A stretch of DNA of 64,000 nt from a virus: positions 3,513-67,512 of IMG/VR virus record IMGVR_UViG_3300029985_000042, one strand, 5' to 3'. The notes beneath the pieces are model-generated. The model had not been told where the DNA came from. It searched no databases and saw only the letters and a program-made list of their open reading frames with translations. The translations under genes were made by a program, and so were the position numbers. Below are positions 20,783 to 48,388 of the stretch, one piece after another (position 1 is the stretch's first letter; every line of letters starts with the position of its first letter).

Positions 20783-20826
20783 AAGAAATAGCAATTAATC
20801 AACAAAAACAATATATTTATTATAAT

Positions 20827-31187: not shown

Positions 31188-31229
31188 TAAAATAAGTTTA
31201 CTTCTTCGATAGATAGTTTATAATTCAAC

Positions 31230-31853: not shown

Positions 31854-31854
31854 G

Positions 31855-31882
31855 TTTACTTCTTTGATGTTTAGGATATAAT
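31855..31882 (+). promoter_or_regulatory. Sigma70-like promoter of guaC
   Basis: TTTACT-16nt-TATAAT, 9 nt before the ATG. Confidence 0.6.
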
Positions 31883-31891
31883 GGTGGCACT

Positions 31892-32860
31892 ATGGCTACA
31901 ATTTTAAATAAACCACAAGCGTTAAATTATAAAAATATTATACTGAAACATGGTAAATGTATAGTATCTTCCCGAAGTGAGTGTGACATTTCCACTACTA
32001 TCGCCAACAAAAAAGTTGCCGCACCGGTATACATATCCAACATGATTTCGGTATTAAATCATGATATTGTTAAAAAATTTGATGATAATAAATGGTTTCA
32101 TATATGGCATAGAATAGGGGATTATCAACACATAAAAGACTATGTAAAATGGGCAAACGAGTCTAACCTATATTTCGTATCAATATCAATTGGTATTAAA
32201 GAACAAGATATGGATTTATTGAAATGGTTAAAGGAGTCGGGATATAGAATTGACAGTATTTGTATAGATGTTGCGTTTTCTTATAATGACATTATATTGC
32301 CGATTATAGAATATATAAAAAACAATTTTCCAACTACATATTTAATAGTTGGAAATGGAGATAGCACAGATTGGATTTTATGGCTGGAAAAATATGGGGT
32401 AGATGCTGCAAAAATAAATATTGGAGTTTCCGCCGCCTGTCGGACAAAACAATTCACCGGGTTTGGGTCAACTACAATTACTGATTTATATGAGTGTTCG
32501 AAAGTATCTAATATTGATATCATATGTGATGGTGGGTTGACCGTCGAAAATAATGAAGTATGGATTGGTGATATTGCCAAAGCCATAAGATTTGGTGCTA
32601 CAGCAGTAATGTCGGGGACTCTATTTAAAAATTGCATTGATTCACCGGCATTAACAAATTCATACTATGGTAATGCAAGTAGAAAAGCAAAGGGTAATAA
32701 TCATGTCGAAGGAACTATTCTTGACAACATACAGACTAATGGATTGACAACTGTAGAGTTGATTAAATTAATTGAAGAATCGCTTCGCTCATCCATGAGT
32801 TATAGCGGCGGGCGGGTGTTATCCGACCTAACTAAATGTGACTATCAAATTATAAATTAG
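31892..32860 (+). CDS. guaC: GMP reductase (IMPDH/GMPR family)
   Basis: SRSECD; SNM; IDVA; IVGN; KINIGVSAACRTK...TGF catalytic loop; IICDGG; GDIAKAIRFGATAVM; HVEG. Confidence 0.85.
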   Translation: MATILNKPQALNYKNIILKHGKCIVSSRSECDISTTIANKKVAAPVYISNMISVLNHDIVKKFDDNKWFHIWHRIGDYQHIKDYVKWANESNLYFVSISIGIKEQDMDLLKWLKESGYRIDSICIDVAFSYNDIILPIIEYIKNNFPTTYLIVGNGDSTDWILWLEKYGVDAAKINIGVSAACRTKQFTGFGSTTITDLYECSKVSNIDIICDGGLTVENNEVWIGDIAKAIRFGATAVMSGTLFKNCIDSPALTNSYYGNASRKAKGNNHVEGTILDNIQTNGLTTVELIKLIEESLRSSMSYSGGRVLSDLTKCDYQIIN

Positions 32861-33887
32861 GAACTAAATCTGGATTTATTTGGTTATATTTTTTAGAATA
32901 TACATTATATAGCATCAAATATTTTTGATACTTTCTATCCAACCCAAAGAGCTTTCCACCATAAATATAATTTAATGCTATCATCATATTATTCCGAGTG
33001 CTAACTTCAAATCTAGAATTCCCACCGTTTGAAAATTTTTGACGGATTATTTTCCCACCTAAAAATGTATTTTCTGCAAATTTCCATTCTTGATTGTAAT
33101 TGGATGTTATTGAAAAATACGATTCTGAATAATTGGTAGGTAATACATAAATACAACCATCGGCATCGGCCAATCCCCTCCAGAAATAACATTTAAATTT
33201 ATCGGGTATAAATTCCAATACTTTGGTTGGTGATTTTTTATATTTATCTATAAAGTCTAAGTCCGATAACAGCATAAATAACGACTTATTATTCGTGCTT
33301 ATAATAGTTTGCTCTCTGTCATTTTTACCTTTTGGTTGATATTTATAAGTATCCCACTCACCCGTCGAATTGAAGATTGGTAATAATGATTTCGCATCAT
33401 CACTTGTTATTTTAGTCCGTATATTATAACCATGCCCACGTGATATATAACCATCTCCCCATAAAAATCCAAGGATATAGGCAACTTCCGGGATACTACA
33501 AGTCTCAAATAACGAATTGATTATTTTAGATTTAAATCGCAACTGGCTATTTTCGGATAGTAACTCCGATCTACATGCACTTGAAATTTTTAAGTTTGAT
33601 TTATTTGCTTGATGTAAGCACGATGACTTCGATTTATTCAAAATCTTGCCACATTTTTTTGGTCCCAATTCAGAATAATGCTCAATTAACCAATTTACAT
33701 CAACATCCGACCACGTTAATTTTCCTTGTTGTCTTTTATATATCCCGGCCAATTTAACCATCTTCTGTATAGAATAAATAGAACAGTTTAATTGTTTGCT
33801 TATATCAATAATTTTAGTCTTATCTTTATACAATTCTATTATTTTATTCTTTAAAATAAGGTCTTGTCCTTTGGATTTATTATTCAT
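32850..33887 (-). CDS. Free-standing LAGLIDADG homing endonuclease
   Basis: AYILGFLWGDG and FWRGLADADG motifs; N-terminal HTH; LDRK. Confidence 0.85.
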   Translation of the reverse strand: MNNKSKGQDLILKNKIIELYKDKTKIIDISKQLNCSIYSIQKMVKLAGIYKRQQGKLTWSDVDVNWLIEHYSELGPKKCGKILNKSKSSCLHQANKSNLKISSACRSELLSENSQLRFKSKIINSLFETCSIPEVAYILGFLWGDGYISRGHGYNIRTKITSDDAKSLLPIFNSTGEWDTYKYQPKGKNDREQTIISTNNKSLFMLLSDLDFIDKYKKSPTKVLEFIPDKFKCYFWRGLADADGCIYVLPTNYSESYFSITSNYNQEWKFAENTFLGGKIIRQKFSNGGNSRFEVSTRNNMMIALNYIYGGKLFGLDRKYQKYLMLYNVYSKKYNQINPDLVPNL

Positions 33888-34036
33888 AGTTTTATTTTCT
33901 TATCATCCATATATTTTTTAATAATTTCCTCCACTAATTTATTGAGGACTAATTTATTGGCGGCACAATAAGTCTTAATCTTCGTATGGATTTCTTCGTT
34001 GATACCGATGTTTTTTAATTTGATATTTTCTTTCAT
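33884..34036 (-). CDS. Unannotated ribbon-helix-helix protein (50 aa)
   Basis: MKENIKLKNIGINEEIHTKIKTYCAANKLVLNKLVEEIIKKYMDDKKIKL; ATGA overlap with the LAGLIDADG start. Confidence 0.75.
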   Translation of the reverse strand: MKENIKLKNIGINEEIHTKIKTYCAANKLVLNKLVEEIIKKYMDDKKIKL

Positions 34037-34122
34037 ATACTATATGTATCAATGAAAAAGTGCAAAACATCAAAAATGTAGAAATATATTGACTTATTTT
34101 TGGAATATGATAATATTTATGG

Positions 34123-34386
34123 ATGAATGATATCTCAGGAGAAGTAATATGTAGTATACTTGGACTTTTAGTTGGATTAATGTTTGGAGTATTGGGACTG
34201 ACATTAACATTATTCAATAAACAACTGGTCAAAAGCAATCAAAAGCTTATGTGGATTTTAGATGATTTTGAGAAGATTGCCAATACGTCTGAAAAAAGTG
34301 AACATTCCAGAAATCAACCAGAGTTTCCAACTCCGAATGATTTTTTAGAATACTCGGAGGAAATACGGCCACTATATGGCATATAA
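34123..34386 (+). CDS. Small membrane protein, possibly frameshifted near 34375
   Basis: N-terminal TM helix; an alternative frame continues to TGA 34463. Confidence 0.45.
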   Translation: MNDISGEVICSILGLLVGLMFGVLGLTLTLFNKQLVKSNQKLMWILDDFEKIANTSEKSEHSRNQPEFPTPNDFLEYSEEIRPLYGI

Positions 34387-34459
34387 TCGATGATATAGCA
34401 TATGAAAATGAATTTGTAAAATTAATGGATAATTCAGGATATAGTAGAGGCAATATATT

Positions 34460-34723
34460 ATGAAAATTAAAGTAATAACTCTCCAAACTCCACAATTACG
34501 AGATGATTTGAGATATGATAAATACTGTATTAGTGAGGAACTCTCATATCGATTAAGAAAAATTCCATTAGATATCGATGTTGATAAGGAGATAGAATGT
34601 TTGATAAATCAAGCAATTTCGGAATCTGTGAATGGTAAAATTATATCTGTTTCATCTAAAATAACAAACGACTCCGTAAATTTTTGTCCTGTCGAAGAAC
34701 TTACTATAAAATATGAAAGTTAA
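34460..34723 (+). CDS. Hypothetical protein
   Basis: ORF track; operon coupling. Confidence 0.5.
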   Translation: MKIKVITLQTPQLRDDLRYDKYCISEELSYRLRKIPLDIDVDKEIECLINQAISESVNGKIISVSSKITNDSVNFCPVEELTIKYES

Positions 34724-35231
34724 AATAAGAATTGGAATGCAAACCCTACTTGGAGTTATTTCAAATTCACTTAAACAAGGAATTCCGGTGGATGGTGGAA
34801 ATTGCTTTGATTTGATTGACGACGATGATAAACCACATCGAATAGTAAATTTCTGCGTTGAAAACTTTAAATATATAACTAAAAAATTAAACCTGACATA
34901 TGTGTATGTTGACCTACTCCCTAAATCGGATACATTGTGGATTATAAATGACCATAGAATACCTCAAGAGTGGTATAGTAAAGAATATTGTATTGTTTGC
35001 ACTCCCATCCGAATGCTTCCAACTGAACAGCGTAAAAAATATTTATCCGAGCATAAATTTAAGAAATATACAGATGAAAGCGGAACTTCATGGACTCTTA
35101 TTAAATCTAAAGAACCAAAGTGGGAAGCAGGATTGATTTATGCTCCATATATTCCAAAATGCTTGGATGGATGGAAAGTGGAATCGGAACAAGATTTAAC
35201 ATGTTATACATATAAAAATATTAAATTATGA
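34713..35231 (+). CDS. Hypothetical protein with gp23-like AGLIYAPYIP motif
   Basis: ORF track; motif matches TGAVYSPYIP of the major capsid in this window. Confidence 0.55.
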   Translation: MKVKIRIGMQTLLGVISNSLKQGIPVDGGNCFDLIDDDDKPHRIVNFCVENFKYITKKLNLTYVYVDLLPKSDTLWIINDHRIPQEWYSKEYCIVCTPIRMLPTEQRKKYLSEHKFKKYTDESGTSWTLIKSKEPKWEAGLIYAPYIPKCLDGWKVESEQDLTCYTYKNIKL

Positions 35232-35506
35232 CTAACGAGCAACTGTATAAATATGTCGGAAGTAGTTTTCAAGATGAAACTATTATAAAAAGTAGCCAAG
35301 AACCAGCCGACAAAATAGCACAAAATAATACCACAATAAAAATGTGGGACTATATAAATAAGTTAACTACCGAGGAATTGAAAAATACATTGGCAAAAGC
35401 AATAATTCAGAATAATCAATTAAAATCGGATTTTGATAAATTAACAATTGAGCATAATGATTTCCGGCGACAGCACATTGGCGATGGCCGATGGGATAGA
35501 TATTAA
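35228..35506 (+). CDS. Hypothetical coiled-coil protein
   Basis: ORF track; ATGA overlap. Confidence 0.5.
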   Translation: MTNEQLYKYVGSSFQDETIIKSSQEPADKIAQNNTTIKMWDYINKLTTEELKNTLAKAIIQNNQLKSDFDKLTIEHNDFRRQHIGDGRWDRY

Positions 35507-35549
35507 AATCTTGACATTTTATACATTTTTGGTATTATAGTTCCATATT

Positions 35550-36071
35550 ATGAGAAAAAATGCTAAGACAAAGCGGATTGCGGAAGAGACTCTGATTAAA
35601 ATTGATAATATTGTCAAACACGTCAATCGAGTTCAAGAGAACTGCATCATTCTTGGAAAGTATTTAATATCAAGTGGCAAAATTGATTTGGGAGTAGCAC
35701 TAATAGCAAATGGATACTGCCATGATGTTTCTAAATTTAAAGGTATAGAATTTCAGTTTATGTCTCCGACCCAACCTACTAAGGAAGATGAAGCCAAATT
35801 AAAATTAAAACTGGCAATTCAACATCATCAGAAAGTAAACCCGCACCACGTCGAACATTGGCAATCTATACATGACATGCCAGACGTATATTTGGCCGAA
35901 TTTTGTTGTGATATTCTTGCCCGCTCGCAGGAATTTGGAACGAATCTTCGAGAATGGATTGACGACGACGCCACTAAACGATTTAACTTCTCCAAAGAAG
36001 ATGACGTTTACAAGAAAATAATGGAATACGTCGACATTCTCTGTCAGTCTCCGTTTGAACAAATTAAATAA
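35550..36071 (+). CDS. HD-superfamily (DUF5662-like) protein
   Basis: H...V; HDVSK; HH..N.HH.EHW; MP..YL.E..CD; own promoter at 35511-35538. Confidence 0.7.
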   Translation: MRKNAKTKRIAEETLIKIDNIVKHVNRVQENCIILGKYLISSGKIDLGVALIANGYCHDVSKFKGIEFQFMSPTQPTKEDEAKLKLKLAIQHHQKVNPHHVEHWQSIHDMPDVYLAEFCCDILARSQEFGTNLREWIDDDATKRFNFSKEDDVYKKIMEYVDILCQSPFEQIK

Positions 36072-36073
36072 AT

Positions 36074-36244
36074 ATGATACTATATTCTACAGTAAGATGT
36101 AATAAGTGCTGGAATTATATTCATTTTAATTATACTATAGATATAAAATCAATTAAATGTTGTTGTTTAGCATGTGATTGGACTAGATGGGACGTTTCAT
36201 CCGAAATGTTGTATCAGATTAAAGACCGTAAATTGAGTAAATAG
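36074..36244 (+). CDS. Unannotated 56-aa Zn-ribbon protein
   Basis: MILYSTVRCNKCWNYIHF...CCCLACDW..., translated by hand. Confidence 0.45.
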   Translation: MILYSTVRCNKCWNYIHFNYTIDIKSIKCCCLACDWTRWDVSSEMLYQIKDRKLSK

Positions 36245-36268
36245 TATATTTTAATTATATTTATATAT

Positions 36269-36745
36269 GTGGTTAAAATTGCACTACATCATCCATTAAG
36301 TAAGATTGAAAAAACTATTTGTTTATTTTCACGGGGGAAATATTGCCACGCAAGTATAATATTAGATGATGGGTCGGTATATGAGTCCAAAGCATGGATT
36401 GGTGTTAGAAAGAAATCTTCAATATCAGACGGCGAACAGGTGGGGAAACGTATAGATTTATACACTGTAAAATTGAAGCCAGACCAAAAAAAACTATTAA
36501 TAAAATTTTTAGAGTCTAGAATGGGATGGAAGTATGATTATTTTGGTGTATTGGGATTTGTTATATATTCTACCCGTGAAACTCGGCTCGACCTTCATAG
36601 AGTGTTTTGTTCTGAACTAGTGGCGGCTGCGCTTGGTCATGCTAAATTTAAATTGTTAGAACGAATTCCAGCATGGAAAGTGGCTCCCGTCATGTTGTCA
36701 TGGTCTCCCAAAATAAAATTTGAAAAAACCATCGTTATAAAATAA
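36269..36745 (+). CDS. Permuted papain-like amidase (YiiX/YaeF, C92)
   Basis: YCHAS...GWKYD...FCSELVA...P; His precedes the catalytic Cys. Confidence 0.8.
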   Translation: MVKIALHHPLSKIEKTICLFSRGKYCHASIILDDGSVYESKAWIGVRKKSSISDGEQVGKRIDLYTVKLKPDQKKLLIKFLESRMGWKYDYFGVLGFVIYSTRETRLDLHRVFCSELVAAALGHAKFKLLERIPAWKVAPVMLSWSPKIKFEKTIVIK

Positions 36746-36930
36746 TATTAAAGTTAGATTTCAAATTTGAGAATGTGGTTGATTTGTTATTATACAGATT
36801 GTCAATTACCATGTAGAAGTCATTTAAATCTAACGTATTTTTCATTGTGTTGATACTATCTAAACACAATACTATATTAGTTTTAACATATCCATCATTA
36901 GAATTTACCCTATCAACCGACAATGTTACG
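36735..36930 (-). pseudogene. C-terminal remnant of an HNH-type endonuclease
   Basis: SVDRVNSNDGYVKTNIVLCLDSINTMK; N-terminus missing. Confidence 0.6.
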
Positions 36931-37190
36931 TAAAATAATGGAGTGAGCATAGGATGCTTTAAACAAGGCAAAATACGATTGTTCGAACATACCGTAAAGT
37001 AGCGGCTCCATTAGGAATTTATTCTCTTGACAAATTTTTAATATCTGATATTCTACTCTCAATGAAAATTGAATCAAAAATTAAAACTATTCAGGACGAA
37101 ACTGGAATTGCTAAACAAGAATTAATGGAATGTTAAGTTCGTATGACATTCTTTGTCAGTCTCCATTTACAAATTTGAATAAATAATAAT

Positions 37191-37448
37191 ATGATGTATA
37201 CATTAACTGAAGAAGAATATAGCACATTAAAAGAAGCTGCTCAAAGAAGTTCTAATTTACCAACCCCAAAACAATTACAAACGATATGCACTTTAATTGC
37301 AGATACTATGCCAATTAAATGGTCGTGGGGAATTGGAAAAGAATCTCCAATGCCTTGGAAGTGTATAATAAATCAATCTGATTGGTATTGTGATGAATGT
37401 CCTGTTCGGAGATTGTGCGAATATCCTCATAAAAAATATAGTCAATAA
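37191..37448 (+). CDS. Small Cys-rich hypothetical protein
   Basis: PWKCI...YCDECPV..LC. Confidence 0.6.
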   Translation: MMYTLTEEEYSTLKEAAQRSSNLPTPKQLQTICTLIADTMPIKWSWGIGKESPMPWKCIINQSDWYCDECPVRRLCEYPHKKYSQ

Positions 37449-37449
37449 T

Positions 37450-37680
37450 ATGTCTAAAAAGAATAAAATTCCTCGTAAATTAAGTCTGGTAAAATTTGAT
37501 TTTGATAGCGTTGATAAAAAATATCACGAACAATATCCATTTCTTCCAAGTTCTCATTACATATTCTTAGGAGAAATTCCTAATATGGCGGAACATTGCG
37601 TTATAGGTAAAAAAGATGGCACAATCACTTGGGGATGGCATACTAATAATTTTGTTGAATTAAGTGAAGAAGAAGTTTAA
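37450..37680 (+). CDS. Small hypothetical protein
   Basis: FLGEIPNMAEHCV; ATG 37450 follows the upstream stop. Confidence 0.6.
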   Translation: MSKKNKIPRKLSLVKFDFDSVDKKYHEQYPFLPSSHYIFLGEIPNMAEHCVIGKKDGTITWGWHTNNFVELSEEEV

Positions 37681-37684
37681 TTTC

Positions 37685-37712
37685 TTGACTTCTTCCAATT
37701 ATTTGGTATAAT
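37685..37712 (+). promoter_or_regulatory. Sigma70-like promoter with extended -10
   Basis: TTGACT-16nt-TATAAT with TGG extension. Confidence 0.7.
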
Positions 37713-37721
37713 CTCAAAATT

Positions 37722-38831
37722 ATGAACTGGTTATTACCAAATATTAGTTTTTTAGCAATTGACGGGTCGAAAAGTTATGGAATGTCCCACTCAACGAGTG
37801 ACACCGACGTAAAAGGTATTGTATTACCTCCCATCGAAATTCGAGAACATTTATTCAATAAATTCGACCAAGCAATCAACAATAAAGATTTAGAACTTAA
37901 ATATTCTCATTTAAAAAATCCTAACAATCCGAAGTTCGAATCCACCCTTTTTAGTTTATCTAAATTCTTCCAACTTGCCGCTCAGGTAAACCCCAATATA
38001 ATTTCTCTTTTATGGACTTCTCAATCTGATATTTTGGAATGTAATAAAATTGGTGAGGAATTACTAAAAAATAGAGATTTATTTCTATCAACCAAGGCAA
38101 AGTGGACATTTGGAGGTTACAGCTTGAGCCAGTTTTCCTTAATCGAGAGACATCGTCGGTGGTTAATTAAAGGTGAAATGACTAAACCAGACCGTAAGGA
38201 TTATGGATTGGTTGGTGAAGTCCTACAAGGACATTCAGAAATCGATAGACTTGTTAAGAAAGAAATTGAAAATTGGAATTTCTCTAAATTTTCTATGGAT
38301 GAATTAGAACGGCAAGAATTAAAGGAAACTGTGTGGGAATGTGTCTTGAAGTTATGCAATAATAAAATTTCATGGGATAATTGGCCGCAGAAGTATGAAG
38401 AAGCCATTTTAACTGATTTTTCAAAGACATTCAATCTATCATCTGAAATTACTAACTTAATATTGAGAGAAACTCGGTATAAGAATGATTTAAAGGACTA
38501 TAATAGCTGGTTAAACTGGAAACAGAATAGAAACCTTGATAGAATGAAATTGGAGAAAGACTTTAATTATGATTGTAAATCCGGGGCTCACCTCAAACGA
38601 CTTATGGAAATGTCGTCGGAGATTTTATCCGGCAAGGGAGTAATAGTAAAAAGACCAGATGCGGAAGAATTATTATTCATACGCAGTGGAGGCTGGTCAT
38701 ATGACAAACTCAAAGATTGGTTTGAGAAGAAGTCAATTGAGATAGAGGAGTTATACAAAACCACAACACTTCCAAAATCAGTAAACTATGAAAAAATTAA
38801 TGAATTGTATCAATATTTAATTCAATTATAA
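37722..38831 (+). CDS. Pol-beta-family nucleotidyltransferase (Nuc-transf / T4 NrdC.11-like)
   Basis: GSKSYG....SDTDVKG; NPN; YDCK...HLKRL; LLFIRSG. Confidence 0.85.
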   Translation: MNWLLPNISFLAIDGSKSYGMSHSTSDTDVKGIVLPPIEIREHLFNKFDQAINNKDLELKYSHLKNPNNPKFESTLFSLSKFFQLAAQVNPNIISLLWTSQSDILECNKIGEELLKNRDLFLSTKAKWTFGGYSLSQFSLIERHRRWLIKGEMTKPDRKDYGLVGEVLQGHSEIDRLVKKEIENWNFSKFSMDELERQELKETVWECVLKLCNNKISWDNWPQKYEEAILTDFSKTFNLSSEITNLILRETRYKNDLKDYNSWLNWKQNRNLDRMKLEKDFNYDCKSGAHLKRLMEMSSEILSGKGVIVKRPDAEELLFIRSGGWSYDKLKDWFEKKSIEIEELYKTTTLPKSVNYEKINELYQYLIQL

Positions 38832-38832
38832 A

Positions 38833-39912
38833 ATGACATCGTTAAATATATCTAAAGATGAGTGGATTGAGTTAAATAATACTAAATCTAAGGATGAGAT
38901 TAAATTATATCTCCATGATTTGGTTGAAAAGAATAATATTCAACTACCGACTAGAGAAATTACATATGAGGAAATGTTGGAAGATTTTCAAGAATTATGT
39001 AAATTAGATTCATCGTCTTTAATTGTAGACTCCAAAGATTTTGTATTGAAATATGATTATAAATGGTTTCGGCCAAAATTTTATATAAAAAATTGTAATA
39101 TTGGAAACAAATCATCTGATTATTTCCATCAAGATAATAGATTGAAATGCAATTCTATCAATGCTCCATCTCCACATAGAAGCTGGAATAATAGAAAATT
39201 TAGAGATGGAATTTTCAATGCTTTTTGGACTTTAAAATTTAAAGAAATCAATTCTAATACCATTCGCCAAGCAATTGCACTTCGTAAATATACCGCTTCC
39301 CAATTTAGACCGAGTGCGGCAAAGTGTGTTTATGATTATTTTAAACCATATAGCGTGTTAGATTTTTCAAGTGGGTGGGGAGACCGATTAGCTGGATTTT
39401 ATGCTTCATCTGCGGATGGTTATACCGGAGTTGACCCTAATTTAGCATTATATGATGGGTATTCGGCTCAAGTTAAAGCATATCAATTTGAAGATTCTAA
39501 AACATCGGTCTTAAATCCAAAATGTGCCGAAGAGATGGACTATAACAATGAATTTGATTTAATATTCACTTCACCCCCATACTTTAATATAGAAAAATAT
39601 TCTGGAGATGATAAGCAATCATGTAAAAGATATAAGAAATGTGATATTTGGAATGAGAAATTTTTATTTGAATCTATTAAGAGAGCATGGAATGGATTAA
39701 TACCTAGTGGGGATTTGTTAATCAATATTTCCGACGTATATTCTGGTCATACTATAAATAAAATATGTGACCCCATGAATGATTTTATAAATACATTGGA
39801 AGGTGCATCTTATCAAGGAACCATTGGATATCAAATGGCTAAACGCCCAAATAGTAAATCGGTTAAATCTGGAGTTTTTTGTGAACCTATGTGGCACTGG
39901 AAAAAAATTTAA
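38833..39912 (+). CDS. DNA amino-methyltransferase 1
   Basis: QFRPSAAK; LDFSSGWGDRL (motif I); FTSPPYF (motif IV). Confidence 0.85.
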   Translation: MTSLNISKDEWIELNNTKSKDEIKLYLHDLVEKNNIQLPTREITYEEMLEDFQELCKLDSSSLIVDSKDFVLKYDYKWFRPKFYIKNCNIGNKSSDYFHQDNRLKCNSINAPSPHRSWNNRKFRDGIFNAFWTLKFKEINSNTIRQAIALRKYTASQFRPSAAKCVYDYFKPYSVLDFSSGWGDRLAGFYASSADGYTGVDPNLALYDGYSAQVKAYQFEDSKTSVLNPKCAEEMDYNNEFDLIFTSPPYFNIEKYSGDDKQSCKRYKKCDIWNEKFLFESIKRAWNGLIPSGDLLINISDVYSGHTINKICDPMNDFINTLEGASYQGTIGYQMAKRPNSKSVKSGVFCEPMWHWKKI

Positions 39913-39917
39913 ATAAT

Positions 39918-40421
39918 ATGAATAAAAGAAATTTTTTAAAATTTGGATTAACAATTTCTACTTTTTTTGGTATATGCCCGTCAATAGCATTATCTAATGA
40001 AGTTGATAAATCAATTATTACACCATATAAATCTGAATATTTTCCAGAGGATGGATTTGTAATTGAGCCGTCTAAGACGTTACTTGATAAGCATAATTTA
40101 CACTTGACGAAGTATCCGGTATTTATTTCCGACAAATTAACCACGGAAACAGTAAGAGCATATAAAACAAGATTTGGAGGTATACAAGAATTAACTGCAC
40201 CTATTCCAAAAACTTATTGTTCTGATGAATATATCGATGGTATTCTTGCATATGCTAAAAATGAACTCGGCGCAAAGACTATACATACAATAGCGGTGCA
40301 AAGAACTATATGCCTACAATGTTGTGGAAAATGTGAAAAAACTAATCAACGCATCAGTGTATTTATTAGATTTTCCGAAGAGGTTCCCAAGCAGAAATAT
40401 CCAATTGATAAATTTGTATGA
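39918..40421 (+). CDS. Hypothetical protein with Tat-like signal peptide
   Basis: MNKRNFLK, hydrophobic stretch, then ALS; ATG 39918. Confidence 0.5.
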   Translation: MNKRNFLKFGLTISTFFGICPSIALSNEVDKSIITPYKSEYFPEDGFVIEPSKTLLDKHNLHLTKYPVFISDKLTTETVRAYKTRFGGIQELTAPIPKTYCSDEYIDGILAYAKNELGAKTIHTIAVQRTICLQCCGKCEKTNQRISVFIRFSEEVPKQKYPIDKFV

Positions 40422-40469
40422 AAAGTAAAATTTAATTGACATTTTATAAATTTTCGATATACTCCTCAT

Positions 40470-40907
40470 ATGATTAAATATCCTACATCGTTCCAGACAG
40501 TTGATTGTTTTATTGTAAACAGAGCAAAAAACGAAATATTAATTGGCAGAAAACCAACCGAGAATAAATTTCGATTGCCCGGCGGATTTGTTGACCCGTC
40601 CGATTTGTCGTTGGAAGATGCCGCCAGACGAGAATTACATGAGGAAGTCGGAATAAATTTGGAATGTAGCCATCCACAATATCTCTTCAGCAATCGTCAA
40701 GATGACCCCCGTTATCGAGATAGTCAGGATAAAATTCTAACGGCAGTATTTGAATTTAATTATACATTTGGATTTGCTACGGCGGGCGATGACCTCAAAG
40801 AATGTGGCTGGTTTGGTGATTATTATATAAAACTAAACTATAAAGATTTAATCGTAGAAACTCATTGGCCTCTTATCGAAAAATTAATTGAACTCAGTGA
40901 AATTTAA
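40470..40907 (+). CDS. Nudix hydrolase (ADP-ribose pyrophosphatase-like, NadM C-terminal type)
   Basis: TVD; LPGGFVD....EDAARRELHEEVG Nudix box; DDPRYR; AGDD. Confidence 0.85.
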   Translation: MIKYPTSFQTVDCFIVNRAKNEILIGRKPTENKFRLPGGFVDPSDLSLEDAARRELHEEVGINLECSHPQYLFSNRQDDPRYRDSQDKILTAVFEFNYTFGFATAGDDLKECGWFGDYYIKLNYKDLIVETHWPLIEKLIELSEI

Positions 40908-40953
40908 CTCTTGACTTATTATAAATCTCTGATATCCTACTGAAAAATAAATT

Positions 40954-42324
40954 ATGAAAATGAATAAACTTAACAAACACAACCTGATTTTTACCCTGGA
41001 CTCATATAAGCAACTCCATAGTGAGATGTATATGCCAAATACTGAAGTCGTATATTCTTACCTAGAAGCAAGGAAGGGCGGGATGTATGATTATACTACA
41101 TTCTTTGGATTGCAATATATTCTAATCGAGTGGCTCGAAGGTGTCGTTCTGACGAAAGAATTAATCGATGAAGCCGAACCTATTCTAAAGGAACATTTTA
41201 AATTTAATGGTGATATTTGGAGTAGAGCCAAGTGGGACTATATTGTAGAAAAACATGGCGGTAAATTACCAATTAAAATTAAGGCCGTAAAAGAAGGAAA
41301 GAATTTTCCAATTGGAACTGTGTTGATGACGGTAGAGAACACTGACCCTAATTGTTTTTGGCTTACGAACGCTCTTGAAACATTGTTACAGCAAGTTTGG
41401 GCCGCTACGACAGTCTGCACTCGTAGCAATTATATTATCAATATTATCAAAGATTATTTCCAACAGACGGTTGATTATTCTAATCAATGGCTTGTTGACT
41501 ATTATTTGCATGATTTTTCCCAACGAGGATTGAGCGTCATGGAAGAAGCGGGTGTTTCTTGTTTGGCACATTTAGTCAACAGTAAGGGGACTGATAGTTT
41601 AATGGCACTTCCATATGCCATAAATTATTATGACGCTAATATCGATGGACTTGCTTATTCTGTGCCAGCGAGTGAACATAGTATTGGGACCGCACTTGGA
41701 ACGGGAGGAGAATTTGAAGTTACTAAACATTTAATTAAACAATATCCAACCGGAATTCTTTCAGTTGTATCGGATAGTTATAACATTACAAATGCAGTTA
41801 AGGTATATTGTAATGAATTAAAATCTGATATTATGGGTAGAAATGGAAAATTTGTAATTCGGCCTGACAGTCCCCGATTTGAAGGAGATACTCCTGAAGC
41901 ACAAGTATTATGGATTGCACAACAATTATGGGACGGTTTCGGTGGAACTATAAATTCGAAGAGTTATAAAGTATTAGATAGCCATGTTGGAATTATTTAT
42001 GGAGACTCGTTGACCGAACACGACATTAAAAATATTTTGGAAACATTAAAAGTTAATGGATTTAGTGCTGAAACTTGCGTGTTCGGATGTGGTTCATATC
42101 TCGTAAGAAAATTAAATAGAGATACCCAGAGATTTGCATTTAAATGCTCGGCACAAAAAAGAGATGGAGTTTGGCATGATATTTACAAAACTCCGTTGGA
42201 TATGTCGAAGGCGAGTAAACGTGGACGATTTGATGATAACCAAGACCTAGAAACGGTATTTATCGATGGTGAAATCACCAAGCGGTATACATTTGAACAA
42301 GTAAGGAAGAATAGTTGGCTATGA
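40954..42324 (+). CDS. nadV: Nicotinamide phosphoribosyltransferase family protein (NAMPT/NadV or Namat-like)
   Basis: DSYK.H..Y; FFGLQY; LETLL; HDFSQRG; SVPASEHS; SVVSDSY; IRPDS; RDT..FAFK; KASKRG. Confidence 0.9.
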   Translation: MKMNKLNKHNLIFTLDSYKQLHSEMYMPNTEVVYSYLEARKGGMYDYTTFFGLQYILIEWLEGVVLTKELIDEAEPILKEHFKFNGDIWSRAKWDYIVEKHGGKLPIKIKAVKEGKNFPIGTVLMTVENTDPNCFWLTNALETLLQQVWAATTVCTRSNYIINIIKDYFQQTVDYSNQWLVDYYLHDFSQRGLSVMEEAGVSCLAHLVNSKGTDSLMALPYAINYYDANIDGLAYSVPASEHSIGTALGTGGEFEVTKHLIKQYPTGILSVVSDSYNITNAVKVYCNELKSDIMGRNGKFVIRPDSPRFEGDTPEAQVLWIAQQLWDGFGGTINSKSYKVLDSHVGIIYGDSLTEHDIKNILETLKVNGFSAETCVFGCGSYLVRKLNRDTQRFAFKCSAQKRDGVWHDIYKTPLDMSKASKRGRFDDNQDLETVFIDGEITKRYTFEQVRKNSWL

Positions 42325-43146
42325 GTTAATGATTTTAATCATTCGTTCGGTTTTTCTTTTTAATCCTATAGAATTGTTTATAGGATTAAAATAATTTATT
42401 AGTTTTTTAACTCCATCTTTATTCTGTATCATTACACATGAATATTTGTTTCCTGTTTTTTCTATTATTCGATATAATTTATTGATTATATTTAATTCTT
42501 TTAGTAAAGACTGAATATCTGTCCAATCTTGTTGATACGTTCCTGAAAATTTAAATGAATTATATTTTGTTTTTTTTGTAATACACCCGTCTCCGTCGAA
42601 ATAACCTCTCCAGAAATACATTTTTAAATTATCCGGTATTGTATTTAGTATTTTGGTAGGAGTTGTGCTAGATTTTATATTATAATCATTATTTTTTAAA
42701 AAATTAAAAAGTTCTTTGTTATTTGTGCTAATTGATGATACTGGTTTCCAATCCTTCCGAACTCTATTTTGAATACACCATTTTCCTAATTTGTTTATAT
42801 ACGGCAAAATATCATTCATATCTTTCGAGTTAATTTCCAATGATATTCGATGATGATTTATCTTATTTGATTTATAGCTTATAATATTTCCATCAGCCCA
42901 TAAAAACCCCAGAAAATAAGCAGTCTCCATCTTGTCTATGGTTAAGAATTGATTTATATTGATATTCATCATAGATGGGTGTTTAGATAAATATTTACCA
43001 GTTCTTTGTTGTATTTTATATCGTTTTACGACAGGATATAAACAATATGCTGGTCTATTTAATATTTTAGAGCAATAACACGCTCCATATTTTGGGTAAT
43101 TAGTTCGTAGGAACTCTATTTCTTCGATTGTATATTTTTTATTCAT
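42319..43146 (-). CDS. Free-standing LAGLIDADG homing endonuclease
   Basis: AYFLGFLWADG and FWRGYFDGDG; LKRK; paralog of 32850..33887. Confidence 0.85.
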   Translation of the reverse strand: MNKKYTIEEIEFLRTNYPKYGACYCSKILNRPAYCLYPVVKRYKIQQRTGKYLSKHPSMMNININQFLTIDKMETAYFLGFLWADGNIISYKSNKINHHRISLEINSKDMNDILPYINKLGKWCIQNRVRKDWKPVSSISTNNKELFNFLKNNDYNIKSSTTPTKILNTIPDNLKMYFWRGYFDGDGCITKKTKYNSFKFSGTYQQDWTDIQSLLKELNIINKLYRIIEKTGNKYSCVMIQNKDGVKKLINYFNPINNSIGLKRKTERMIKIINS

Positions 43147-43222
43147 ATACCATATATATCACGAACATTTGAAAATATCGAATAAATCTTGACTTATTTT
43201 TGAACTCTGATATTATCAACCA

Positions 43223-43702
43223 ATGATTACTACTGATACACATGTATATTTTTGGAATGGCATTTATTCCAATTGGGATAATTGTCATTTCAATGACCCA
43301 ATTGCTGGTCTTAAATTTGAGAACACCGAACAAGCTTTTATGTGGTATAAAGCAGATTGTTTTAACGATGATGAAACTAAAAAACTAGTAGCTAAAACTC
43401 CAAATCCAAAAGAAGTTAAAGCACTCGGTAGAAAGATTGCATCTTATAACGAAGAAGTTTGGGTTGACCGTAGATTTAATTATATGGTCTATGTAAATGA
43501 ATTAAAATTTACTCAAAATCCATATTACGGACAAACTTTAAAAAATACCGGAACTAGAATTCTCGTAGAAGCATCTCCATATGACAAAATTTGGGGAGTC
43601 GGATTACTTGAGACTGACCCCTTAATTTTTGACGAAAAGAATTGGAAGGGACTAAATCTACTTGGTAAAGCATTAATGGAAGTTAGACATAGACATTTTT
43701 AA
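43223..43702 (+). CDS. NADAR (YbiA-like) protein
   Basis: SNW; EQAFMWYKA; KALGR; KFTQN; LVEASPYDKIWGVG; GLNLLGKALMEVR. Confidence 0.92.
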   Translation: MITTDTHVYFWNGIYSNWDNCHFNDPIAGLKFENTEQAFMWYKADCFNDDETKKLVAKTPNPKEVKALGRKIASYNEEVWVDRRFNYMVYVNELKFTQNPYYGQTLKNTGTRILVEASPYDKIWGVGLLETDPLIFDEKNWKGLNLLGKALMEVRHRHF

Positions 43703-43706
43703 TATT

Positions 43707-43976
43707 ATGACAGCATCCGAAGCAAGACAACATACGGAAAATTCACTGCGAAAAAACGGCTCTACCGAACTTGAAAAAATTTTCAGTCTTATTAAGACCA
43801 AATCCATTAACGGAGAATCTTGGGCAAGATATGACTTAGACAATTCAAAAATCGAAGCCCCACTACGAGAAACAATTATAGCTGCATTAAAACGTGATGG
43901 ATTTACGGTAGTATACTGTAATGAATATGACCAGCGGGATGGTGATAGTTGGAATTATCTATCAATAAGCTGGTAA
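43707..43976 (+). CDS. Small hypothetical protein
   Basis: MTASEAR...LKRDGF...ISW. Confidence 0.6.
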   Translation: MTASEARQHTENSLRKNGSTELEKIFSLIKTKSINGESWARYDLDNSKIEAPLRETIIAALKRDGFTVVYCNEYDQRDGDSWNYLSISW

Positions 43977-44049
43977 TTTAATTGACAAGTCGTAAACTTC
44001 TGATATACTCTATTTATGAGTTTAAAAATTTTTAGTGTATATTCGTATT

Positions 44050-45060
44050 ATGAACATTTTCATTAACAAAAAACAATGGTCTCAATTTAACGAGACTGAA
44101 ATGGTAAATTTTAAAGATAATATCTTTAATCATTATAGAACATATGGATTCCCATATTTTAATCTATGTAGAGAAGAACGAAAAATAATATTTGAAAAAT
44201 TAAAATCGTTTAATTCGTCTACTTTGCTACAAGATGGAAATAAGTTAAAACAGGTAATGCTTGGGTTAAATTTAGCCAATCATTATATGCCTCATATGTG
44301 GGATGTTAAATGTAATGGATTTGTATCTCCAATGGAAACTTATTTGGATGATATTAAATTTAAAAAGGCAATTGATAAGAGAATTAAACTTGGTGATAAT
44401 ATATCAAATGCCGGAATTAGAAAAGCATTGTGCTGGTCAAATGGGTCGCAAAGAGTTAGTAATTTTAGGCCGACTGTAGCCAAGTATATTTACGATAACT
44501 ATTCGGGCGAAGGAAACGTATTGGATTTTTCTTCTGGATATGGTGGGAGATTATTGGGAGCATTGTCATCTAATAGGGTTAAATATTATTATGGTTATGA
44601 ACCGTGTATTAAAACCAGAACATGTTTATATCAAATCTATGATGATATAGATAATAATACCAATTCTATTAATATTCCATTTACAGTATCACCCAGTCCA
44701 TTCGAAGACTCCTATAATTCTGATAGTGTATTTGATTTGGCATTCTCATCTCCACCATATTTCCGGACAGAAATTTATAGTGATGAGGATACTCAATCAT
44801 GTAATCGGTATAAAACCAAAGAAGAATGGAAAGAAAAATTTCTAAAAGTATTAATTGAGAAGTGTTATTCATTTCTAAAGGACGGAGGAATATTTGCGAT
44901 AAATGTAGCAAACGTAAAGACTTATCCGGACTTAGAAAAAGACACGTTACAATTGGCAAATGAAATTGGGTTTACGTTGATTAAGACTTATCAGATGAGT
45001 TTATCAGCACTCATGAAATCGGGCTACAAATATGAACCAATATTTGTATTTAAGAAGTAA
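44050..45060 (+). CDS. DNA amino-methyltransferase 2
   Basis: NFRPTVAK; LDFSSGYGGRL; FSSPPYF; EPIFVFKK. Confidence 0.85.
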   Translation: MNIFINKKQWSQFNETEMVNFKDNIFNHYRTYGFPYFNLCREERKIIFEKLKSFNSSTLLQDGNKLKQVMLGLNLANHYMPHMWDVKCNGFVSPMETYLDDIKFKKAIDKRIKLGDNISNAGIRKALCWSNGSQRVSNFRPTVAKYIYDNYSGEGNVLDFSSGYGGRLLGALSSNRVKYYYGYEPCIKTRTCLYQIYDDIDNNTNSINIPFTVSPSPFEDSYNSDSVFDLAFSSPPYFRTEIYSDEDTQSCNRYKTKEEWKEKFLKVLIEKCYSFLKDGGIFAINVANVKTYPDLEKDTLQLANEIGFTLIKTYQMSLSALMKSGYKYEPIFVFKK

Positions 45061-45281
45061 TGATTATTAAAGACTCTATCAGAGGAAAAATAATAGATAC
45101 TACCAAACTGTCGGATGCCGACGCATTATTAATGGAAAAAGTTGAAGAATTAACTCTTCTTTGTCAACGATATGGATATCGAAGTGTTTTAATGATAGAA
45201 CAGAAAAGCAGCAATACGTTTTGGACACGATTTACGTGTAGAGGAATATCTACATGGAAATTTTCTACAACGTCCCTATAA
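45060..45281 (+). CDS. Hypothetical protein, probably truncated
   Basis: ORF track; ends just before the RHH-HNH cassette. Confidence 0.35.
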   Translation: MIIKDSIRGKIIDTTKLSDADALLMEKVEELTLLCQRYGYRSVLMIEQKSSNTFWTRFTCRGISTWKFSTTSL

Positions 45282-45361
45282 TCATTTATAAAATTAACTT
45301 CTCAATAATAATTATTTTCACATTTATGTGATTTTGGCATTTCTCACTTATATTTATAAGT

Positions 45362-45511
45362 ATGAAACCAATAAAATCAAAAAACATAAATATAAACGAA
45401 GACCTTCATACTAAGTATAAGACCTACTGTTCTTCCAAAAAATTAAAACTTAATAACTTCGTCGAAGAGGTGTTGGAAGCATATTATAACTCCAAACTAA
45501 AGGAGAAGTGA
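45362..45511 (+). CDS. Unannotated ribbon-helix-helix protein (49 aa)
   Basis: MKPIKSKNININEDLHTKYKTYCSSKKLKLNNFVEEVLEAYYNSKLKEK; clearly similar to 33884..34036; late motif at 45350. Confidence 0.75.
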   Translation: MKPIKSKNININEDLHTKYKTYCSSKKLKLNNFVEEVLEAYYNSKLKEK

Positions 45512-45512
45512 T

Positions 45513-46160
45513 ATGACTAAAGAAGAAAAAAAATTTCACAAACGAGAATATAACAAACTATGGAGAAATACTCTTACAGATTCTGAAAAAGAAGATTTGA
45601 GACTTAAAAAGCGGGAATATAATAAAAAACATTATCTTGAACATAGAGATGTTGAATTGGAGAGGAAACGGGAATATAGTCGAGGCCGCAGGGCAAGACT
45701 ATCTGATGAGCAGCGATTACATCATAACAAAGTCCAACGAGAATATAATAAGAATAATCGAAGTAAAATAAACAATATAAAAAATAAATATGACAAGAGT
45801 AAAAAAGGATATGAATGTCGAATTAAAAATTCATATGGGCTGACCTATAATGACGTAAAACAATTATTCTTATATCAAAATGGTAAATGTTTCATATGCA
45901 AATCTATATTTAAAAATAAAAATGATATGAATATTGACCACAATCACTCCAATGGTAAAGTTCGTCAATTGTTATGTCGCTCATGCAATAGAGGGCTTGG
46001 GTGTTTTTACGAAAATATTAATTCTTTTGAAAATGCATTGGAGTATTTAAAGAAATGGAATGAATCCCCAAATGTTAAAATAGAACAGGTGACACCCTTA
46101 AATTCTTTAGAATTTGAAAAATTTATGGGACATGAAGTTCAAACTTTCGATGTAAACTAA
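45513..46160 (+). CDS. Endonuclease VII-like HNH homing endonuclease
   Basis: YGLT...QNGKCFIC...IDHNHSNGKVRQLLCRSCNRGLG; basic KREYNK repeats. Confidence 0.85.
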   Translation: MTKEEKKFHKREYNKLWRNTLTDSEKEDLRLKKREYNKKHYLEHRDVELERKREYSRGRRARLSDEQRLHHNKVQREYNKNNRSKINNIKNKYDKSKKGYECRIKNSYGLTYNDVKQLFLYQNGKCFICKSIFKNKNDMNIDHNHSNGKVRQLLCRSCNRGLGCFYENINSFENALEYLKKWNESPNVKIEQVTPLNSLEFEKFMGHEVQTFDVN

Positions 46161-46162: not shown

Positions 46163-46681
46163 TTACATCACGCTTGGAGTAGAACCAATCTCTGGTGGAG
46201 TCTGAGGAGTTCCTGCAATTGTAGTAGTGGTAGACGGGATTGTGTTCATACTTTCTGCTAATTCTTTCAAATTATAATATCGAGAAAGTGTATTTCCTAT
46301 GTCCTCGTGCGCCACCCGCAATTGTTGCATTTTAGCATAACACTCTTTAGCAATCTTAGTATGTTCTGAGATTCTTTTATTAACATTGGCAAAGTCCTTC
46401 TTGATTATGTCTGTTTGAAAGCAATCTCCGCACTCGTGAATTGCGTAATTCGACGCCAATTCGCATAATTCCGTCATGTTCTTCGTCGACTCTAAAATAG
46501 CGGCTTCATTTTTAAACACTTCACCAAATTTTTCAAATTGAGAAGCCATCTCCATCAATCTCTTTTTCTGCTCCGGCGTTAATTTTTTCGGCTCGTTATC
46601 AAATCCAGTTGTAGTTGAAATTTTATCAAAATTTTCGACAATTTGTTTTAATGATAGCTTGTTGTTTTTTGGTGTGCTCAT
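46163..46681 (-). CDS. Helical head-module hypothetical protein
   Basis: ORF track; LKQIVE leader; EDIG..LSRYY; late motif at 46686. Confidence 0.6.
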   Translation of the reverse strand: MSTPKNNKLSLKQIVENFDKISTTTGFDNEPKKLTPEQKKRLMEMASQFEKFGEVFKNEAAILESTKNMTELCELASNYAIHECGDCFQTDIIKKDFANVNKRISEHTKIAKECYAKMQQLRVAHEDIGNTLSRYYNLKELAESMNTIPSTTTTIAGTPQTPPEIGSTPSVM

Positions 46682-47043: not shown

Positions 47044-47760
47044 TCAAAATATATGTGCAGATGCTATTTTAATTGCGGTTTCTTCTGATATGTTTACATC
47101 GTTACTCCAAACGTCAGCGACCGAATTTAAAATGTTTATTGATGCTGGCAATGTCCCAAACTTAGACTGTAGAATAATTTTATTTATTGGAAATTTATAT
47201 CTATTACTCAATCGTCCTTTTAAATTACCATTCCACTCATGTATTCTTGCGGTTAATGTCTTAGACGATACATTTACCAAATTAAACTCCGATAATAAAG
47301 TGTGTATCTTATCTCTTCCTATTTTAGTAGTTAACTTTAAAATTAACTGTTTTACAGGCTCTTCTATTTGTTTATATCCAAAATTATCAATCCCAATTGA
47401 TTTTTCTCTTGTTTTATTTGATAATGCGACTGCCGAGCGTATTTTATCTTTAATTTCAGATGGAAGTTTATGGTATAAGTTAACATCATTTGACCCATTC
47501 CCACCAGCGGAAATATTATATCCTATATTCTTATCTGTAGAATTTAACATCTTTATCCAATAAATCTCTCGCTCATTTAATTGATTGTTGGAATTACAAT
47601 ACTCTAATATTTCTTTTTTAAAATTTTTCTTTTTATATTTTTTAATTGCACTTCGCAATATTATTCCAGACCCAAAATAAAGTGGATTATTAGTTGCGTT
47701 TTTACCAACGTAAATCTTTCCATTTATATTGTTTGTGATTTTATATATAACACCAATCAT
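47044..47760 (-). CDS. GIY-YIG homing endonuclease
   Basis: GVIYKITNNINGKIYVG...YFGSG...FKKEILE...EREIYWI...GYN; ATG 47760 follows the late motif at 47767. Confidence 0.8.
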   Translation of the reverse strand: MIGVIYKITNNINGKIYVGKNATNNPLYFGSGIILRSAIKKYKKKNFKKEILEYCNSNNQLNEREIYWIKMLNSTDKNIGYNISAGGNGSNDVNLYHKLPSEIKDKIRSAVALSNKTREKSIGIDNFGYKQIEEPVKQLILKLTTKIGRDKIHTLLSEFNLVNVSSKTLTARIHEWNGNLKGRLSNRYKFPINKIILQSKFGTLPASINILNSVADVWSNDVNISEETAIKIASAHIF

Positions 47761-47785
47761 ATGAGTATAAATATAATCCAAAACC

Positions 47786-48388
47786 TTATATATCAAGTTT
47801 TATTAAAAACTCCGACAAAATCTTCGCACCGTCAGTTTCTCCCACGAATGGAACACTTTTAATTACTTCCAGTGAATTGTCAATTTTAGGAGTTTCTGGT
47901 TGAGTTGGTTGAGTTGGTTGAGCCGGTTGGGGCTGTTCATCTGCTTCCTGTAAATTATTTTCTTGACCTTGTGATTGACCTGATGAACTCTCCGATGACG
48001 TATTTTTTGAAAACGCAGTCCAACAAAATTGATTTCCTTCTTTCAATTTTTTAATAATAGTAGTATTATTGTTTGAAAAATCATCGGTAGACTCATATTT
48101 TATCATGAAATCTGTAAATTCAACGGGTTTTGCCGATGTATAATTTGTTACTGCTTGCTTTTCTTGCGGCAAAAATTGCAATCCACGATGTTGAGCCACA
48201 TAACTATTAAACTCGGAGTTGGTATTAAATTTTTTAGAAATAACATTTAAATTTAGATTTTCATTCTCGCAAATGATTGATTTATATGATTTTTTGTATT
48301 CTTTCAATATTTTTAACAACTTTTTTTTCCCATTGAAATCAAGAGAATTCCTTGATTTTATTATAGTTTTTAGTTTTTTATTATTCAT
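47786..48388 (-). CDS. Hypothetical late protein
   Basis: ORF track; QP-rich linker; late motif at 48395; divergent from the scaffold gene. Confidence 0.55.
   Translation of the reverse strand: MNNKKLKTIIKSRNSLDFNGKKKLLKILKEYKKSYKSIICENENLNLNVISKKFNTNSEFNSYVAQHRGLQFLPQEKQAVTNYTSAKPVEFTDFMIKYESTDDFSNNNTTIIKKLKEGNQFCWTAFSKNTSSESSSGQSQGQENNLQEADEQPQPAQPTQPTQPETPKIDNSLEVIKSVPFVGETDGAKILSEFLIKLDI

Follow-up and report, generated by a model that had tools for sequence, protein, structure and literature searches.

The window analysed here is a stretch of 64,000 nucleotides (positions 3,513 to 67,512) from a 67.5-kb virus record, IMGVR_UViG_3300029985_000042 of IMG/VR, and the subject of this study is a pair of micro-genes within it that each encode a small ribbon-helix-helix (RHH) protein and each lie directly ahead of an endonuclease gene. 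RHH1 (33884..34036, minus strand) specifies a 50-aa protein of the SvtR/56B type and RHH2 (45362..45511, plus strand) one of 49 aa. Both open reading frames (ORFs) are present where the original prediction, made from the sequence alone, had placed them, and the residues common to the two products agree with the motif it had read in them, KNI.INE..HTK.KTYC...KL.LN..VEE. RHH1 and RHH2 are paralogues, with 24 of 42 aligned residues identical in a single BLASTP comparison (57%, E 8e-17), and they are the only RHH copies in the entire record. Micro-genes of this kind fall under the usual annotation cut-offs.

At the first locus the RHH1 stop codon, TGA, shares bases with the ATG of the gene at 32850..33887 (minus strand), giving ATGA; at the second, the RHH2 stop codon is followed by one base and then by the ATG of the gene at 45513..46160 (plus strand), with an AGGAG 8 nt upstream of that ATG. 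Both junctions are as first described. The gene behind RHH1 is predicted to encode a two-motif LAGLIDADG homing endonuclease: it matches PHROG 4645 at E 1e-21, and its two LAGLIDADG-like motifs align with those of a paralogue (42319..43146, minus strand; 37% identity) that has no RHH gene and passes the Pfam LAGLIDADG_3 cut-off with 49.2 bits (PF14528). The RHH1-linked gene's own LAGLIDADG_3 score is 21.0 bits, below the cut-off of 22.5. The gene behind RHH2 encodes a predicted EndoVII-type HNH endonuclease, matching PHROG 2914 and 2633 and scoring 69.6 bits against Pfam Endonuclease_7 (PF02945; cut-off 23.6) over profile positions 1-82 of 82. The nuclease identities assigned in the original prediction are borne out by these matches.

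Among four close relatives of the RHH genes the ratio of nonsynonymous to synonymous substitution rates (dN/dS) is 0.05-0.36, and the RHH ORFs are therefore real genes under purifying selection; for the RHH1-RHH2 pair itself dN is 0.32 and dS is saturated. One metagenome contig (run X5) follows RHH1 to base 34032, a position barely within the start codon, beyond which its next 130 letters are unlike; because of this divergence, a second RHH1-like copy with another upstream context is suggested for the sample of that run.

The RHH family

The assignment of both proteins to the RHH fold is weak for single sequences and solid for the family profile. Taken singly, RHH1 and RHH2 score 20.7 and 20.9 bits against Pfam 56B_RHH (PF21432; E 3-4e-4), below its cut-off of 27.2. 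They match Pfam ParG weakly (E 1.4e-3), PHROG 582 ('Arc-like repressor') at E 4e-5 to 1.5e-4 and, again weakly, PHROG 9151 ('HicB-like antitoxin') at E 5e-3 and 6e-4, and Pfam Arc is not among their hits at E ≤ 1. A profile of 29 family sequences (alignment A3), in contrast, matches PDB 2kel, the viral autorepressor SvtR/56B, at E 1.6e-8, with CopG, ParG and omega next at E 4e-3 to 8e-2.

An exhaustive HMMER search with a two-sequence profile returned 64 representatives at E ≤ 1e-3, mostly of 40-60 aa, and residues H17, K21 and C24 are invariant across the 29 aligned members. A word-index search found 127 protein clusters at E ≤ 1e-5; among the 120 clusters listed, all are of 38-122 aa, almost all are metagenomic and many carry a precomputed PF21432 hit. 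Where source names are given they are 'HicB family' (including 'HicB family nuclease'), 'CopG/RHH' or 'hypothetical'. On this profile evidence RHH1 and RHH2 are members of a real RHH family of 40-60-aa proteins that resembles 56B/SvtR. Searched by tblastn against 50,697 phage records, RHH2 gave just SvtR-like hits in SIRV (E 0.7-1) and hits in two 'Dulem virus' records of small size (E 1), and the RHH protein of homologous locus L017 gave nothing. When 8000 longer candidates were scored for fused RHH-nuclease or other longer forms, none reached E ≤ 1e-3, which is weak evidence by the tool's own rating.

Structure models place the RHH domain over residues ~5-47 of 50, without a C-terminal tail; the monomer is modelled with an extended N-terminus followed by helices at 14-26 and 33-47. 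The homodimer model scores an ipSAE of 0.51 against 0.00 for the best control, a mark attained by 20 of 30 proteins whose structures were solved as pairs and by 1 of 23 whose structures were solved as single chains. Its runs agree on at least 86% of contacts and the partner pLDDT is at least 76. An antiparallel ribbon is made by contacts 9-9, 9-11 and 10-10, and the helices touch at 38-38, so that the models contain both the strand-helix-helix topology and the intertwined dimer that define the RHH superfamily. Because RHH dimers have already been solved, the homodimer score may mirror likeness to known RHH structures and is not proof of dimerisation.

Linkage to endonucleases and modular exchange

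Homologues were collected from other phage and metagenome contigs, outside the window. Five locus scans, for which four smaller alignments (A4-A7) were used in place of the 29-sequence alignment, gave 54 loci, and these were collapsed, where both the RHH and the downstream protein were the same, to 29 distinct RHH genes. No relative was found in a scan of viral contigs with the two-sequence alignment or in a scan of 185,579 prokaryote genomes. A classified homing endonuclease gene (HEG) lies directly behind the RHH gene on the same strand in 16/29, with its start at -38 to +3 nt relative to the RHH stop; most loci have an overlap of 8-38 nt between the end of the RHH gene and the start of the nuclease gene. 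These downstream genes fall into PHROG 3339/DUF7487 (L003, L018, L032 and L036), the zinc-finger nucleases of PHROG 559/681 (L004, L012, L019, L038 and L044), PHROG 1035 'endonuclease VII' (L007, L017 and L025, of which L017 was placed by BLAST at E 1e-19 to 1e-24) and GIY-YIG (L010, L013, L039 and L040). The proposal that one small regulator precedes nucleases of different folds thus holds beyond the window, with four further classes.

In one of the remaining loci the RHH gene is followed by an unclassified 234-aa Cys-rich protein (L022), and in three it stands directly after a nuclease-like gene (L008 and, tentatively, L029 and L030, whose upstream protein has weak similarity to a nuclease class and is without a Pfam hit). 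The other nine have no adjacent nuclease (L005, L011, L014, L016, L031, L045, L046, L048 and L049). For comparison, endonucleases resembling those collected are encoded by 6 of 133 genes of at least 80 aa that do not adjoin an RHH gene at the same 28 loci, a background that is a lower bound, as just similarity to the collected endonuclease set was scored. Under a binomial model, 16 or more of 29 would arise by chance with a probability of 1.9e-9 if the background is 10% and of 1.5e-6 if it is 16%, figures that are generous because the loci are related and the linkage statistics overstate their independence. In the loci collected, nucleases are thus enriched behind RHH genes, and a two-gene unit of RHH and nuclease is supported.

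The nuclease partner often differs even between close RHH relatives. Among 15 RHH pairs that are at least 60% identical and in which both members have a classified downstream nuclease, 13 differ in nuclease class. The junction is clearest in L007, L010, L022 and L025, whose RHH proteins are 79-90% identical and whose DNA similarity extends from about -45 nt of the RHH ATG to about RHH codon 42. The ORFs that follow (endoVII-like, GIY-YIG, unclassified and endoVII-like, respectively) are of three kinds; all of them begin at one ATG within the conserved 3' end of the RHH gene, and their similarity is lost a few codons on. Since similarity ends near codon 42 and the ORFs diverge past the shared ATG, the RHH gene and its upstream DNA form, from these alignments, one unit to which unrelated nuclease ORFs have become attached.

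Two of the homologous loci have a further feature. L007 has an intact glycosyltransferase gene (480 aa), whereas in L008 (1794..4063) and in L061 of the related phage G001 (214..2880) this gene is interrupted near residue 170. The insert in both is a nuclease gene followed by an RHH gene. The two nucleases are unrelated, whereas the two RHH proteins share 27.5% identity (E 8e-6); in L008 the C-terminal piece of the glycosyltransferase gene begins in overlap with the RHH stop codon.

Absence of the cassettes from a related phage

The record that contains the window has an estimated completeness of 19%. The major capsid protein of the window shares 53% identity with those of Microcystis phage Mel-JY01 and Flavobacterium phage 'immuto', and a complete relative of 353,772 bp, G001, is available; by virtue of these two likenesses the source is a distant T4-like jumbo phage. 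A DNA search with the window region gave no match among cultured phages.

G001 lacks RHH1 and its LAGLIDADG gene at the equivalent junction, where a dehydrogenase homologue (78% identical) is followed by another endonuclease gene with a NUMOD3 motif and a DUF559-like end, and synteny returns at the homologue of 35550..36071. At the second locus 43223..43702 and 46163..46681 have G001 homologues (73% and 63% identical, respectively) that converge directly on each other, and the window segment 43703..46162 is therefore extra; it holds a methylase-like gene (44035..45060), an ORF of 73 codons (45060..45281), RHH2 and the HNH gene. Both cassettes of the window are thus missing from a complete relative, as expected of the mobile unit that had been proposed; G001 does carry its own RHH-nuclease cassettes elsewhere in the genome. 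A GIY-YIG gene of the window (47044..47796, minus strand) is likewise absent from G001. Four metagenome DNA runs examined over 31000-36500 contain the same phage with patchy cover, and no contig in them joins across the RHH1 cassette, so that a form with an empty site was not seen; among RNA data sets, none is listed as carrying that cassette.

Upstream DNA

The DNA ahead of each RHH gene is a candidate promoter and operator region: 34037..34100 (minus strand) for RHH1, with degenerate T-rich boxes of 8-bp period, and 45300..45361 (plus strand) for RHH2. The two regions can be aligned over ~50 nt and are each other's best non-self match in the window (score 32; mean 14.6, standard deviation 3.6). 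Repeats are evident in the relatives, in which the 20-55 nt ahead of the RHH ATG contain tandemly arranged boxes (8-11-bp period) and then a TATA-like, AT-rich element. The boxes consist of CTAC and a T-run, of AGATAAAA or of a doubled palindromic GGTATACC. Over the 70 nt upstream of the start codon the tandem-repeat score averages 11.6 for 28 RHH genes and 9.5 for 167 control genes from the same DNA (Mann-Whitney p 4e-9), and a score of at least 13 is reached by 9/28 RHH regions against 4/167 controls.

By eye, the box type follows the N-terminal strand of the RHH protein: K-T/S-x-K-I-S pairs with CTAC boxes, K-N-x-K-I-S/P mostly with AGATAAAA boxes and K-S-I-I-I-N/K with GGTATACC boxes. L046 and L049 are exceptions to this correspondence between box type and RHH subfamily. 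Within the window, an ATG-proximal 18-mer of the RHH1 cassette is also found at the LAGLIDADG paralogue without RHH (43147..43222) and, with 2 mismatches, at the GIY-YIG gene 56958..57422, and a 13-mer farther upstream of RHH1 recurs upstream of 42319..43146 (again within 43147..43222). Terminator scans gave no excess over shuffles.

Shine-Dalgarno (SD)-like 4-mers precede just 5 of the 52 window ORFs of at least 120 aa, and this scarcity suggests that the host of the phage makes little use of SD-led initiation. The idea that the RHH genes are read from leaderless mRNA was dropped because such 4-mers are rare for all genes of the phage and the RHH genes are not special in this respect.

Discussion

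The small RHH protein is probably the product of a portable module, made up of a control region and the RHH gene, that autorepresses a translationally coupled endonuclease gene. Each cassette would be a self-contained expression unit for a free-standing HEG, composed of ~50 bp of control DNA, a 50-codon SvtR/56B-type RHH gene and a nuclease ORF whose translation is predicted to be coupled to that of the RHH gene. An RHH dimer would bind the repeated boxes just upstream of its own start codon and repress transcription of the cassette from a putative promoter there, so that nuclease output would stay low and would vary little with the insertion site or with the copy number of the phage genome. 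The control region and RHH gene would act as a portable 5' module that has been recombined onto unrelated ORFs of predicted nuclease activity, i.e. LAGLIDADG and EndoVII-HNH in the window and GIY-YIG, PHROG 1035, PHROG 3339/DUF7487 and PHROG 559/681 elsewhere.

Several observations weigh against this account. The monomer model has a pLDDT of 64.7 and no Foldseek match in the PDB. The similarity between the RHH1 and RHH2 upstream regions tops the window only marginally (32 against 29 for the next best), and their own tandem-repeat scores of 10 and 9 lie about the control mean of 9.5. Three repeat patterns scanned across 61 loci matched only within ~50 nt upstream of RHH starts, a result which means that there are no extra copies elsewhere and nothing more, the patterns having been taken from the regions matched. 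Sigma-70-type promoter scans gave no excess over shuffles (14 against 10.3 +/- 3.9 and 9 against 7.8 +/- 3.1), and the lone promoter hit ahead of RHH1 stops 3 nt short of the ATG, which is too near for it to serve that start codon. The module is optional, since an RHH gene is lacking at 8 of the window's 10 HEG-like genes, and conversely 9/29 RHH homologues have no adjacent nuclease. In L008, L029, L030 and L061 the RHH gene trails a nuclease-like gene with no intergenic DNA ahead of it, and these loci therefore misfit a simple layout of operator, RHH and nuclease. The relatedness of the loci, which inflates the linkage statistics, belongs on the same side of the balance.

The shared start codon in L007, L010, L022 and L025 can be read in another way, namely that the RHH gene is an ordinary small phage regulator and that nucleases gather behind a favoured homing or recombination site at or after its 3' end, in which case linkage would reflect the targets that the nucleases prefer and not their regulation. 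Four nuclease ORFs of three kinds that share an exact ATG inside a conserved RHH 3' end are what such a landing pad would produce, as are RHH genes without a nuclease (9/29), three of which (L031, L046 and L049) stand in a conserved setting convergent with a gene of 350-360 aa; moreover, the junction past the dehydrogenase gene holds different HEGs in two relatives. Against this, the flanking genes vary from locus to locus and similarity begins just ~45-50 nt upstream of the RHH gene, G001 lacks RHH together with the cassette so that no 'empty site' with RHH alone was seen, and a single genome can hold two or three diverged copies at unrelated sites. This explanation, which is compatible with regulation, is improbable. 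A role as an accessory DNA-binding subunit, with the RHH dimer bound at or near the nuclease target or insertion site to aid homing or to shield the carrier genome, is rated a little lower still. The RHH is a DNA-binding fold, and in L008 and L061 the RHH gene lies behind the nuclease gene within a split glycosyltransferase gene, where control of a promoter is hard to picture; yet one RHH subfamily accompanies nucleases of unrelated folds and presumably unrelated targets (13/15 pairs), the subfamily-specific repeats sit just upstream of the RHH gene itself, and the absence of an RHH-nuclease fusion from the 8000 longer candidates adds weak evidence in the same direction.

Two further readings are less likely again. 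RHH domains are used by several type II antitoxins, in which a C-terminal extension binds the toxin, and the original prediction had suggested that the RHH protein might likewise neutralise the nuclease until it is needed. The two-gene order with the small gene first and an overlap would suit such a pair, as would the 'HicB family' labels on some members and the weak PHROG 9151 match. The protein is, however, a bare RHH domain in which the modelled helices (14-26 and 33-47 of 50) leave no toxin-binding extension, there is no fixed cognate toxin family since 13 of 15 close RHH pairs change nuclease class, nucleases of these families are also encoded without RHH elsewhere in the same genome, and 8 of 10 window endonuclease genes have no RHH. 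The antitoxin proposal is accordingly not supported and is very unlikely. Least credible of all is that the RHH ORF is only a translated leader that brings ribosomes to the nuclease start, its peptide having no function. The ATGA overlap at RHH1, the overlaps of 8-38 nt in most loci and the rarity of SD-like 4-mers (5/52 ORFs) would all fit a leader, but the dN/dS values, the conservation of the family over 127 clusters with invariant H, K and C positions and the profile homology with solved DNA-binding repressors would not.

Control of restriction-modification (R-M) systems offers another parallel. R-M C proteins are small DNA-binding proteins that are encoded just upstream of, and co-transcribed with, the nuclease gene and that act on their own promoter; they are of the helix-turn-helix type. 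The likeness lies in a gene for a small DNA-binding protein just upstream of a nuclease gene, and the protein described here differs in being RHH and not helix-turn-helix. The methylase-like gene 44035..45060 is a neighbour of RHH2 only and has no counterpart at RHH1 or at any other RHH locus, and an R-M-like unit of methylase, RHH and HNH was rejected for this reason. The earlier comparison with an R-M controller thus remains plausible insofar as it implies a transcriptional autorepressor, whereas membership of the C-protein family is contradicted by the fold and by the lack of a recurring methylase.

Arc-like RHH genes beside homing endonucleases, and repression of promoters by Arc in IS605 elements, have already been noted. 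In the available part of a 2023 preprint (10.1101/2023.11.20.567912) Arc-like RHH ORFs are reported in IStrons, with homologues also associated with homing endonucleases, and the available part of a 2026 preprint (bioRxiv 10.64898/2026.09.24.754181) describes binding and repression of IS605 element promoters by Arc, from ChIP-seq and reporter assays, and mentions homing endonuclease neighbours of Arc. In those portions of the two texts the HE-associated Arc genes are noted in passing and are not characterised. As described there, IS605/IStron Arc is alike in being an RHH micro-protein of ~50 aa encoded inside a selfish element beside a nuclease gene. The present partners differ in being protein-only homing endonucleases of a jumbo phage, co-directional with and overlapping the RHH gene, and the present RHH proteins match the SvtR/56B family, Pfam Arc being absent from their hits. 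The comparison is one of analogous context and of the PHROG 582 matches. One family member, L014, lies beside a TnpB fragment: in that locus (2275..2502, minus strand, and 2953..3171, plus strand) the RHH gene and a 75-aa fragment that matches HTH_OrfB_IS605 (E 2.5e-16), the N-terminus of TnpB, are arranged divergently, which is the layout described for Arc in IS605 elements.

SvtR, a 56-aa homodimeric viral RHH protein that, in the available text of PMC5569661, represses its own promoter, is the closest solved relative of the family by profile. It differs in being a protein of an archaeal virus that is unlinked to a nuclease gene and regulates a structural gene, and single-sequence similarity to the window proteins is limited to the tblastn hits at E 0.7-1. 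In phage T4, I-TevI autorepression by operator/promoter occlusion and translational coupling of mobE are covered by the available part of a review (PMC2988022), which also names the regulation of free-standing endonucleases as poorly understood. The T4 genes are alike in that expression is held down by occlusion and by overlap with an upstream ORF; there, as far as that part of the review goes, repression is exerted by the nuclease itself and the ORF upstream belongs to the host phage, whereas here a dedicated small repressor gene would accompany the nuclease. In full-text literature searches on homing endonucleases together with ribbon-helix-helix, RHH or Arc-like proteins, or on autorepression of free-standing endonucleases, none of the papers found characterises an RHH protein coupled to a phage homing endonuclease.

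If autorepression by the RHH protein is correct, low and context-independent HEG expression would have a general explanation in a dedicated 50-codon repressor that travels with the nuclease and is common to three or more unrelated nuclease folds, and the logic of Arc in IS605 transposons would extend to protein-only phage homing endonucleases. The junction at a shared start codon is a clean example of modular exchange among selfish genes. A bolder version, which is possible but doubtful at present, is that the control region, RHH gene and start codon form an exchangeable HEG 'driver', shared among environmental phages, onto which unrelated nuclease ORFs are swapped by recombination at the RHH 3' end, each with a private feedback loop and a dosage independent of insertion site, and that cassettes with the same operator cross-repress. 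Cross-repression of this kind in one cell would amount to competition or immunity among selfish nuclease genes. Furthermore, many diverged pairs of RHH protein and repeat would constitute a natural set of very small orthogonal repressor/operator parts.

Other features of the window

The window is unusually rich in HEG-like genes, which make up 10 of its 62 ORFs of at least 80 aa. Besides the two RHH-linked genes, HEG-like ORFs lie at 7490..8527, 11887..12285, 18182..19144, 27542..29236, 42319..43146 (minus strand), 47044..47796 (minus strand), 51660..53687 and 55958..57422 (minus strand), and the types represented include NUMOD3/DUF559-like, SegE-type GIY-YIG, DUF7487, LAGLIDADG and endoVII-like. 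The last of these regions contains a GIY-YIG endonuclease ORF of 154 aa without RHH (56958..57422, minus strand), which is 46-47% identical to the RHH-linked GIY-YIG genes of L039 and L040, and an ORF of 384 aa (55958..57112, minus strand) with 44% identity over 106 aa to an endoVII-like nuclease; the two overlap by 155 nt in different frames and may be a frameshifted or composite endonuclease gene.

Three methyltransferase-like paralogues (38833..39912, 44035..45060 and 51660..53687) share 28-32% identity, and one of them lies inside the insertion that carries RHH2 and the HNH gene. Another of the three makes up the C-terminal half of a 675-aa protein with a homing-endonuclease-like N-terminal half. 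In the portal protein ORF (20767..23934, 1055 aa), the portal domain (466-864) is preceded by PHROG HNH-endonuclease matches around residues 224-306, which suggest a fused or inserted nuclease module. Between the two RHH cassettes lies an NAD-salvage set comprising a nucleotidyltransferase (37722..38831), a NUDIX hydrolase (40470..40907) and a nicotinamide phosphoribosyltransferase (40954..42324).

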